Source of the DNA: Patescibacteria group bacterium
GTDB lineage: Bacteria; Patescibacteriota; Patescibacteriia; UBA2591; JAQUPP01
Direction: 5' to 3'
Assembly (NCBI GenBank): GCA_041649955.1
Contig: JBAZMD010000002.1
Location: 7,709-71,708, forward strand
Length of the DNA stretch: 64,000 nt
In this document: positions 27,001 through 30,000 of the stretch, piece by piece
Layout of the letters: every line of letters begins with the position of its first letter
Position numbering within the stretch: the first letter of the stretch is position 1
Position numbers: made by a program

Positions 27001-30000
27001 ATAACCAAATCCACTTTTTTATAAGGTCTGAATCGCGAAACCATTAAAAAGTAATCGCCTATTTCATTTGAGATATGAAATTTATCCGTATCAACCGGCG
27101 GATAAATTATAGTTTCCGGCTGGCGGCGATAATATTTTTTAATTCTCTGAGCGACGAATTTGGAAATAGCGATCATAAAATCCGGTCTTTGCGCGGCGAT
27201 AAAATCCCATTTTCTCAAATCAGTCAACATTGGAGGTAGAAACTTTTTTACCAATCTTTCCGCTCCGGTTAAACCATCAAGATATTCATAAGTATCAGAC
27301 CATAAATAACGAGTTGGAGTCAAGCAGTAACAGATAAAACGAGTATGTGGTTTGGTAATCACTCCCTTGGAATAAGCCGAAGTGTTGGAAATAACCAAAT
27401 CAAAATTATTTAAATTGAATCTTTCAATCGCTGCCTGCATTAATGGAAGATACCATCTGTATTTTTTAACGCCAAAGGGCAAATTTTGAATGGGTGAAAC
27501 TTTAATATCGTAATCTTTAAAATGCTTGCCCATTGTATCTTTGTCATAGAGCAAAGTAAAAACCGGCGCTTCAGGCCAAATTTCATGGAATACTTCCAAA
27601 ACTTTTTCCGCGCCTCCGTATTGAGTTAAAAAATCATGAATCAAAGCTACGCGCATACCAAAATTATTTAATTATTTAATCCGCCGGCTGGCGGAGCAAA
27701 ATTTTTAACTATAATTTTGAGTACCCTGCCTCCAAATCTCTAAATAAAATTAATCTAAAAGTTAAAATAAGCCGAAGGCGATTCCGCGAATTAAATTTAC
27801 AATTATCTCAAACCTATATTCGGATGTGGGGTGCGGGTTACCAAAATTCTTTAAAAATTATTTTGCGGATTTCCTAAATAAAAGTAAAAACGGGCTGGCA
27901 ATGGCAATAGAACTGTAAGCACCCGTGCCGACACCAACCATCATAGCGAGAGCAAAATCTTGAAGAGAAATTCCACCGAATAAATAAATCGCCACTAAAG
28001 CCAAAATTACGGTAATAGTTGTGTTTAAAGATCGAACAATTGTTTCATTGATACTTTTATTAATTGTCTCTTCCATATTGCGAGTGCCGTAAAGCAAAAC
28101 ATTTTCTCTGATTCTGTCAAAAACCACGATCGTATCGTTAATAGAATAACCTAAAACGGTTAAAATAGCGGTAATAAATAAAGCATTGATTTCCGTGCCC
28201 CTGAAATGACCCATCACGGCGAACAATCCGCACATTACTAAAATATCATGAAACAAAGCAACTATGGCTCCGCTGCTGTATCGCCAATATTCATTTTGAC
28301 GAGAAAAATTGGCCAATTTTCTAAAAGCCCAAGCAATATAAAAAAACATGGCAATTAAAGCTAGAATAACCGCATATTGTGATTTTTTTACCAATTCTCC
28401 GCCAATAATCGGACCAATGGATTCAAATTTTGATTCTTTGGCATTATTACCCAATGCTTTTAAAGCAGCCTGATGCGTGTCTTCATTGATTTCTTTAAAT
28501 CTCAAAATAAAACTATTATCTCCTATAGTTTGGATATTAATTTCTCCCAAGTTAAGTGGAGATAGTTGCTGAACAATTTCAGAATTTGCCGGCCTATTTG
28601 CTGAATATTCAACTTCCATTAATGAGCCGCCCGTAAAATCAATACCCGGCTTAAGACCCCAAAGAATCAAAGCTAGAAGAGAACATCCGCAAAGAATAAT
28701 GGAAATAATAAAGAAAATTTTTCGATGACCAACGATATTATACATATGTGTTTATTTATTTACTAATTTTAAAAATGTTCTGGTAACAGTAATGGCCGTG
28801 AACATACTGATTAAAATACCTATGCCCAAGGTTAAACCGAAACCTCTTACCGTACCCGAACCGAATTGATAAAGAAAAAAACAAGTGATTAAAGTTGTAA
28901 GATTGCCGTCGCGAATAGCTGACCAAGCGTGAAGAAAGCCGTCGGAAATAGCCGCACCGGAAGATTTTCCCAATCTCTCTTCATCTTTAATGCGTTCAAA
29001 AATTAAAACATTTGCGTCAACCGCCATACCAAGAGACAAAATAAAACCTGCCACGCCGGCTAAAGTTAAAGTAATCGGAATTAATTTAAATAAAGCCAAG
29101 TTAACTAAAGCGTAAATAATTAAAGCAACGCAGGCTAAAGCTCCTCTTGAGCGGTAAAAAATCACCATAAATAACATAATTATCAACATACCCAATAGTC
29201 CGGCAAGTAAACTGTTTTGCACTGAAAGTTTACCTAAACTCGGCCCGATATTTTGCTGACTGATTAATGTTATCGGTACGGGCAGAGCACCGGCAGAGAG
29301 TCTTGTTGCTAATTCTTTGGCTTCTTTTAAATCAAATTTTCCGGTAATCACGGCTTTACCGCTGGTAATCGGTTCGTTAACTGTTGGAACACTCAAAGGA
29401 ACACCGTCTAAAAATATCGCCACAGGTTTGGAAACATTTCTAGTAGTAATTTCTCCAAAAAGTTTCGTTCCCTCTTCGTTAAATTCCAGAGAAACTTCCG
29501 GTTCATTGGAATTAGGATCAAAAGTCATTGTCGCGCTTTTTAATTGCTTGCCCGTTAAACCGGTATATTGCCAATTAGTATTTTGCGGCGTTGTTTGAGC
29601 TTGAGTTAAAATTAAAATATGGCTGGCCATTGCTTCTATCTCACCCTTGTCATTAGTTCGCTCGTCAACTTTTTTAATAATATGATAACCGAAAGATGTT
29701 TGGACTAATGTTTTTGTCGTTTCTCCTTTTTTTAGATCAAAAACAGCTGTTTCAAATTCAGGAACCATCATCCCCTTGGTAAACCAACCTAAATCTCCGC
29801 CCTTATCTTTTGAGCCCGGGTCTTCGGAATATTGTTTGGCCAAAGCACTAAAATCAGCATTGGGTTGAAGCGCTTGTTGTAAAATTGATTCCGCTTTTTG
29901 TTTAGCCATTTGATTGTATTGAGCAATTGCCGCTTGATCGCTCGCTCCTTGTTGCGGAGCTTGTTCTTTAAATTCCAAGGTCGGAGTTTCTCCAATCATT

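Follow-up and report, generated by a model that had tools for sequence, protein, structure and literature searches.

That foldases assemble where the Sec translocon releases its substrates is already known, and recent work implicates SecDF in their recruitment, as described for SurA in Escherichia coli and for the PrsA-like dome of Mycoplasma. In the SecDF proteins of Thermus and Deinococcus, the proton-motive force swings the head of the large P1 domain, which in this way pulls the substrate from SecYEG (3aqp, 5xap, 5yhf; 10.1101/2025.04.25.650208; 10.1101/2024.09.05.611430). SurA binds the SecYEG-SecDF-YidC holotranslocon through the periplasmic domains of SecDF (PMC9987972), PpiD-YfgM binds SecYEG (PMC9643414), and in Mycoplasma pneumoniae the PrsA-like lipoproteins Mdp444, Mdp436 and Mdp489 form a dome on SecDF-SecYEG, in which the active PPIC domain is in contact with density attributed to the substrate (10.1101/2025.04.25.650208; 10.1101/2024.09.05.611430). 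Here we describe a 64-kb stretch of the genome of a Patescibacteria group bacterium (contig JBAZMD010000002.1; the whole stretch is hereafter called the window), whose secD gene would bring the motor and the foldase together in a single polypeptide. SecD of this member of the Candidate Phyla Radiation (CPR) carries a circularly permuted parvulin in the connector between the base and the head of P1, where it would act in cis on the emerging chain.

As in the SecDF proteins of Thermus thermophilus and Deinococcus radiodurans, the SecD of the window has a first transmembrane helix (TM1), a P1 base, a P1 head and the SecD/SecF membrane domain of the resistance-nodulation-division (RND) type, with an adjoining secF, but it differs from them in a parvulin insert of ~129 aa in the base-to-head connector. 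To our knowledge, the crystal structures 3aqp, 5xap and 5yhf lack any such insert. Both PpiD-YfgM and the Mycoplasma dome likewise hold a parvulin or PPIC domain at the translocon exit, and the dome, in a monoderm of reduced genome, does so in physical association with SecDF; those are, however, separate proteins held non-covalently, whereas the domain of the window lies within the SecD polypeptide and is permuted. With respect to PrsA, the lipoprotein foldase of Bacillus and Staphylococcus, the window SecD lacks the NC chaperone domain and the lipobox, its parvulin is tethered by insertion, and the strand order is permuted. The NCBIfam models for PrsA (NF002846 and related) reach 77.4 bits against 361, with matches restricted to residues 162–240, and the insert thus reads as PrsA-like in concept and not as a PrsA. 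The SurA model (NF008038) gives a comparable picture, with 69.3 bits against 394 and a match to residues 149–241 only. SurA also differs in being soluble and separate, in having a canonical strand order and an N/C chaperone module, and in delivering outer-membrane proteins, a service of no use to Patescibacteria if, as is generally assumed, they have no outer membrane.

The parvulin insert of SecD and its strand order

The secD gene of the window is an uninterrupted open reading frame (ORF), with SecD domains flanking the insert on both sides. Its product matches TIGR01129 with 377.7 bits (cutoff 244.4) over residues 45–530, and the Pfam families SecD_1st, SecDF_P1_head and SecD_SecF_C with 60.3, 104.3 and 52.1 bits, every one above its cutoff. 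In layout, too, it is a SecD: a transmembrane helix opens the protein, P1 is large and extracytoplasmic, several helices make up the C-terminal membrane domain (hydrophobic segments at 4–31 and 378–533), and secF adjoins the gene. The full-length AlphaFold2 (AF2) model, with a predicted local distance difference test (pLDDT) of 77.7, is closest to the SecDF crystal structures 5yhf, 5xap and 3aqp.

A sequence-only reading of the window had proposed a parvulin-type peptidyl-prolyl isomerase (PPIase) domain in the periplasmic region of SecD, and the motifs on which it relied, SEDPGSKDKGGDLGWF, VPEFETAVFDLKKGE and SFGYHIIKK, are all found in the translation. The Pfam search agrees with that proposal, since Rotamase_3 (PF13616) matches residues 148–232 with an E-value of 1.2e-28 and 100.4 bits (cutoff 22.5), and Rotamase (PF00639) residues 144–230 with an E-value of 2e-24 and 86.8 bits (cutoff 21.7), both above the gathering thresholds. 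Moreover, NCBIfam models of the PrsA/SurA/PpiC group give partial matches at residues ~149–244, the best sequence matches are to SurA (E 1e-23), and what a search with the insert alone retrieves is for the most part short PpiC-like parvulins that stand alone, and fragments. By these profile matches, which lie far beyond chance, the insert is a true parvulin-type PPIase domain in the extracytoplasmic P1 of SecD. Its location and limits had to be revised. The span originally indicated (29655–29915, minus strand) corresponds to SecD residues 149–235 (NQMAKQ...SEDPGSKDKGGDLGWF...VPEFETAVFDLKKGE...SFGYHIIKKVDERT) and captures the parvulin core, but leaves out the full insert, which comprises residues 134–262 (nucleotides 29574–29960, ~129 aa) and includes a relocated β1 strand. 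The P1 head itself had been named as a possible site of insertion; both Pfam and the model place the domain instead in the base-to-head connector, where the Rotamase matches sit between SecD_1st (74–133) and SecDF_P1_head (266–361), with SecD_SecF_C (364–532) following. The components of the gene are these, all on the minus strand:

28752–30359, minus: secD ORF, 535 aa (stop codon included), with TM1, P1 containing the parvulin insert, and the RND-type membrane domain
30282–30359, minus: N-terminal transmembrane helix, residues 1–26 (hydrophobic segment 4–31; model helix 2–24)
29961–30140, minus: N-terminal part of P1, residues 74–133 (Pfam SecD_1st, E 1.2e-16; model strand 127–133)
29940–29960, minus: linker 1 from P1 base to insert, residues 134–140 (pLDDT <50 at 136–140; variable alignment columns)
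29655–29939, minus: parvulin core, residues 141–235, with no β1 at its N-terminal side
29640–29654, minus: tip of the β4/β1' hairpin, residues 236–240 (alignment columns 324–356; DSSP)
29604–29639, minus: relocated β1, residues 241–252, IEAMASH247ILILT, bearing the first catalytic-type histidine
29574–29603, minus: linker 2 from insert to P1 head, residues 253–262 (pLDDT <50 at 255–260; variable alignment columns)
29277–29573, minus: P1 head subdomain, residues 263–361 (Pfam SecDF_P1_head at 266–361, E 4.5e-30)
28764–29270, minus: SecD membrane domain, residues 364–532 (Pfam SecD_SecF_C and MMPL; hydrophobic segments)

Given the transmembrane helix at residues 1–26, P1 and its insert face outward, outside the cytoplasmic membrane. 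Residues 74–133, which we assign to the P1 base from the SecDF structures, close with an invariant strand T-P-x-L-E-F-K-E. The core that follows linker 1 comprises a long α1, α2, a short helix with S178-E-D180, β2 (GGDLGWF), α4 (with M198 and F202), β3 and β4 (FGYH226II), after which the hairpin tip varies in length from homolog to homolog, the largest insertions reaching ~25 aa.

The modelled insert, which reaches a pLDDT of 91 as an isolated domain, has the four-stranded antiparallel sheet and the four helices of the parvulin fold, in an order other than the canonical β1-α1-α2-α3-β2-α4-β3-β4. The Pfam matches skip the start of the profile and begin at position 10 in PF00639 and at 32 in PF13616, which indicates that the histidine-bearing β1 is missing on the N-terminal side. 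In this line, the models contain no strand between the 'LEFKEQ' strand of SecD and α1, while β4 leads through a hairpin into a strand at 241–251; in the isolated domain this strand (108–118 of the model) falls in blocks of mean pLDDT 97–98 and is placed in a hairpin with β4. A phmmer search against the PDB aligned the query 'FGYHIIKKVDERTNDKGEIEAMASHILIL' to the end of the first parvulin of SurA, the linker and β1 of the second ('HARHILLK'), and this correspondence of β4, linker and β1 with the P1/P2 junction of SurA indicates that 'ASHIL' is a parvulin β1 placed after β4. The sequence-only reading had noticed the ASHIL motif as lying nearby; it is indeed present at residues 245–249 (nucleotides 29613–29627), though its position is far from incidental.

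Two re-permutation analyses point in the same direction. When residues 241–254 were put ahead of 139–235 in four family members, the PF00639 match moved from a start at profile position 10–12 to position 1, and both Rotamase scores rose by ~6–11 bits, in four out of four. For a controlled version, a hidden Markov model was built from 82 canonical stand-alone small parvulins, with a consensus starting 'MEVRASHILIK...'. Re-permutation raised the score by a mean of 9.5 bits (4.2–12.1), with a gain in 38 of 38 sequences and a shift of the alignment start from 12 to 2. The controls stayed near zero: shuffling the strand gave 0.0 bits, reversing it +0.3, and using the SecD sequence naturally found upstream −0.6. 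Furthermore, the β4 histidine precedes the β1 histidine in all ten of the single-insert representatives at 50% identity in which both are recognisable. Taken from both profiles and models, the insert is a circularly permuted parvulin with the order α1...β4, hairpin, β1, an arrangement that would keep its N- and C-termini adjacent, as domain insertion requires. Neither a permuted parvulin nor a SecD-parvulin fusion was described in the full-text literature searched, a collection with few of the papers from subscription journals; as far as we have found, no circularly permuted parvulin was reported before this one.

Distribution and classes of insert

The SecD-parvulin architecture is widespread in Patescibacteria. 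All of the 120 best homologs (57–93% identity) combine PF00639/PF13616 with SecD domains, and those with named organisms come from Patescibacteria, Parcubacteria, Kerfeldbacteria and Veblenbacteria. The same architecture occurs on hundreds of independent contigs (NCBI, JGI, ENA, Logan) as well as in GTDB species-representative genomes where, among the matches listed, the single-insert form was found in Buchananbacteria, Komeilibacteria and others, and a tandem form in Uhrbacteria, Falkowbacteria, Magasanikbacteria and others. The 120 homologs are named just 'SecD' at their sources, and the NCBI annotation does likewise. The combination is visible in precomputed Pfam annotations, which makes it latent in the databases and not unseen.

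Connector lengths were determined in the 150 closest SecD representatives at 50% identity:

Connector <60 aa (no parvulin): 66 of 150
Connector 60–110 aa: 7 of 150
Connector 110–190 aa (single insert): 22 of 150
Connector 190–300 aa (tandem): 33 of 150
Connector >300 aa: 15 of 150
Connector not assignable: 7 of 150

The first class shows that the diagnostic motifs are not ordinary residues of the SecD P1 domain, as these insert-free SecDs do not have them. Relatives thus carry at one site either no parvulin, one, which is always permuted, or two or more. Several lineages have lost both histidines together (e.g., P0261), and two have lost only that of β1. In the tandem layout (L009–L018, L022, L026, L027 and L052; P0240–P0243, P0246 and P0248; with ORFs such as 2170–4203 in L009 or 1558–3735 in L018), a degenerate first core without β1 or the β4 histidine comes first, then an 'ASHIL' strand and a second core that is intact, and finally a short, usually histidine-less strand ahead of the head. 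Such a degenerate first parvulin followed by an intact second one is reminiscent of SurA, in which the first parvulin is inactive and the second active. PF00639 aligns from its position 1 with the inner domain of tandem and larger inserts, indicating a canonical domain, and the joint degeneration of the first core and the terminal strand suggests a nested arrangement, in which the hairpin of a permuted outer domain may house a canonical parvulin. When the terminal strand of the tandems was tested, it proved β1-like only in a subset (+10.2 bits in L018, +5.4 in P0241), with a mean of 1.5 compared with 1.3 for shuffles.

Some of the larger proteins show further particularities. In connectors of >300 aa (P0275, P0279, P0281, P0286, P0295 and P0297) only one canonical Rotamase domain is detectable, the rest of the insert being uncharacterised, and four representatives (P0253, P0269, P0273 and P0284) are SecD-SecF fusions of ~1000–1100 aa that also have a parvulin insert.

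A neighbour-joining tree of the shared head and transmembrane region, which is rough and indicative only, has SecDs lacking the insert as the state at the midpoint root; no fewer than 24 changes of state are required on it, and single and tandem forms are mixed among its branches. Judging from these sequence comparisons, the base-to-head connector seems to be a hot spot at which parvulins are gained, lost and expanded. Occurrence outside the CPR was considered and rejected. Eight loci from species-representative metagenome-assembled genomes (L003, L010, L013, L017, L022, L027, L030 and L052) bear foreign labels, among them Gammaproteobacteria, Binatia and Lysobacteraceae; the SecD head and transmembrane region under such labels is 57–70% identical to that of named Patescibacteria (L003 has a GC content of 30%), which puts them in the same clade and probably makes the labels errors of labelling or binning.

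The sequence-only reading also suggested that the fusion could compensate for stand-alone chaperones lost in a reduced genome. A second parvulin was not found in the 64-kb window. PrsA has been annotated in members of all CPR classes (PMC9166423), which weakens the idea of compensation, and insert-free SecDs also occur among close relatives that are themselves Patescibacteria.

Active site, possible role and rival readings

In an alignment of 38 homologs (the window protein and 37 others, 57–93% identical), the seven positions of the parvulin active site are all present and 95–100% conserved: H247, S178, F202 and H226 at 100%, M198 at 97%, and D180 and L190 at 95%. We take their counterparts in Pin1 to be H59 (H247), S111 (S178), C113 (D180), L122 (L190), M130 (M198), F134 (F202) and H157 (H226). 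An aspartate at the position of Cys113 is usual in non-phospho-specific bacterial parvulins such as PrsA. A245 is invariant as well. Sequence and length are variable in the two linkers and at the tip of the hairpin. With these residues of catalytic type retained, the sequence-only reading was fair in describing a foldase domain joined to a subunit of the translocon, and the insert probably isomerises prolyl bonds.

The P1 head is thought to bind the emerging preprotein. Riding on the hinge beside this mobile head, on flexible linkers, the inserted parvulin would meet the unfolded chain as it leaves the SecYEG channel, bind hydrophobic, proline-containing stretches and probably catalyse their prolyl cis/trans isomerisation. 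In other bacteria the same job is done by separate translocon-associated parvulin foldases such as PrsA, PpiD, SurA and the Mycoplasma Mdp444, and the fusion would make the foldase stoichiometric and permanently placed at the exit site. A more far-reaching version can be proposed only tentatively, and we lean against it: the SecD hinge would be a built-in folding station, in which a permuted and catalytically active parvulin (or, in sister lineages, two or three parvulins in a nested or tandem array) is coupled to the swing of the P1 head driven by the proton-motive force, each power stroke showing the chain to the isomerase, while the series of single and tandem forms would be a natural record of how the permutation arose, whether from a duplication with truncation or from a nested insertion.

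Several considerations weigh against a catalytic role. Conservation of sequence cannot prove catalysis, and the P1 domain of SurA and the parvulin domain of PpiD are catalytically inactive yet functional. The full-length model is of moderate quality (pLDDT 77.7, predicted template modelling score 0.56) and leaves undefined the placement of the insert relative to the rest of SecD. Moreover, related lineages have inserts without both histidines, or no insert, which means that catalysis is not universally required, and the conserved role may be binding, as in a holdase, or structural. A non-catalytic role of this kind is the main rival: the insert would be a holdase or scaffold with a parvulin fold, and not an isomerase, that widens the preprotein-capture surface of the P1 head or tunes the hinge, much as the inactive domains of SurA P1 and PpiD. 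It finds support in related SecDs whose domain persists although both histidines are gone (P0261, with 'GYYIV...GRYIFF', P0291, P0272 and P0276), in the first cores of the tandems, which are retained without the β4 histidine and the M/F pocket motif, and in the PPIC domains of Mycoplasma Mdp436 and Mdp489, which lack catalytic residues and are still members of the complex (10.1101/2025.04.25.650208). The degree of conservation at the active-site positions in the window protein and its 37 homologs is nevertheless hard to square with a purely structural role, and holdase and isomerase functions are not mutually exclusive. We therefore regard this rival as unlikely for the window protein, though by no means negligible.

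Far less credible is a second rival, which concerns the fold and not its activity. The insert could be a non-permuted parvulin devoid of β1, with the 'ASHILIL' strand belonging to SecD P1 itself or being a non-packing remnant of a lost second parvulin. Tandem-insert relatives, in which the 'ASHIL' strand is the true β1 of the following second parvulin, make such a deletion remnant conceivable. The isolated-domain AF2 model, however, places the strand in a hairpin with β4 (pLDDT 97–98), and the invariance of A245 and H247 together with the 97% conservation of S246, I248 and L249 is not what one expects of a remnant. Both histidines are kept or lost jointly in most lineages, and a parvulin sheet without β1 would miss its central strand and one catalytic histidine. 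We consider a non-permuted insert very improbable, and retain the circular permutation. Finally, an assembly or gene-calling chimera of secD with a prsA-like gene, contemplated solely on account of the window coming from a metagenome contig, or motifs that are ordinary SecD residues, found no supporting point and can be regarded as excluded in view of the uninterrupted ORF with SecD domains at both sides of the insert, its recurrence on independent contigs by the hundred as well as in genomes that represent GTDB species, and the complete lack of parvulin-like residues in insert-free SecDs at ~50% identity.

Neighbouring genes and meaning of the fusion

Two other sec genes accompany secD in the window:

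27858–28745, minus: secF, 295 aa, 6 nucleotides downstream of secD (TIGR00966 transloc_SecF, 280.1 bits, cutoff 160; Pfam)
35907–38651, minus: secA, 914 aa, ~5.5 kb upstream of secD on the same strand (Pfam families; given as context only)

Between secA and secD, three small NUDIX genes lie within 5 kb (30460–30939, 34138–34572 and 34588–35055, all minus), an unusual density of such paralogous genes for a small genome. A polytopic membrane protein of the DUF2079 family (480 aa, 30936–32378, minus), whose function is not known, is encoded two genes upstream of secD with a small NUDIX gene in between, and overlaps its neighbours by a few bases. Further upstream, two ORFs on the minus strand (33364–33753 and 33629–34129) overlap by 125 nucleotides; the upstream one, with a TTG start, may be over-extended, its true start probably lying further downstream.

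Elsewhere in the window, the cumulative GC skew has a minimum at ~48000–50000 (near 49.7 kb, in the intergenic region 49644–49895), where gene orientation changes from minus to plus. A replication origin was considered at this place and rejected: there is no dnaA, and the flanks hold a Wzx-like flippase and a Wzy/TPR protein on the minus strand, and a UDP-glucose dehydrogenase and an epimerase on the plus strand, all of which indicates a divergent polysaccharide-synthesis locus and not a demonstrated origin. The region 12001–14000 stands out for its GC content (0.42 compared with ~0.35 in the window) and an AT skew of +0.25, and coincides with a plus-strand ORF of 733 aa (11756–13957).

Coming back to the permuted parvulin of SecD, its interest lies in the fact that the known assemblies of foldases at the translocon are transient or made of several proteins, and hard to study. 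A SecD-parvulin in a single polypeptide would offer a defined, stoichiometric model in which to ask whether isomerisation or chaperoning takes place during translocation, how the domain is positioned with respect to the P1 head, and how it is coupled to the cycle driven by the proton-motive force. Automated annotation hides this permuted-parvulin architecture under the name 'SecD'. Related forms, in which the site is empty or taken up by a single domain, by two or by more, bear on the evolution of circular permutations, and the fusion would add a lineage-specific trait to the poorly understood biology of the cell envelope in the CPR.

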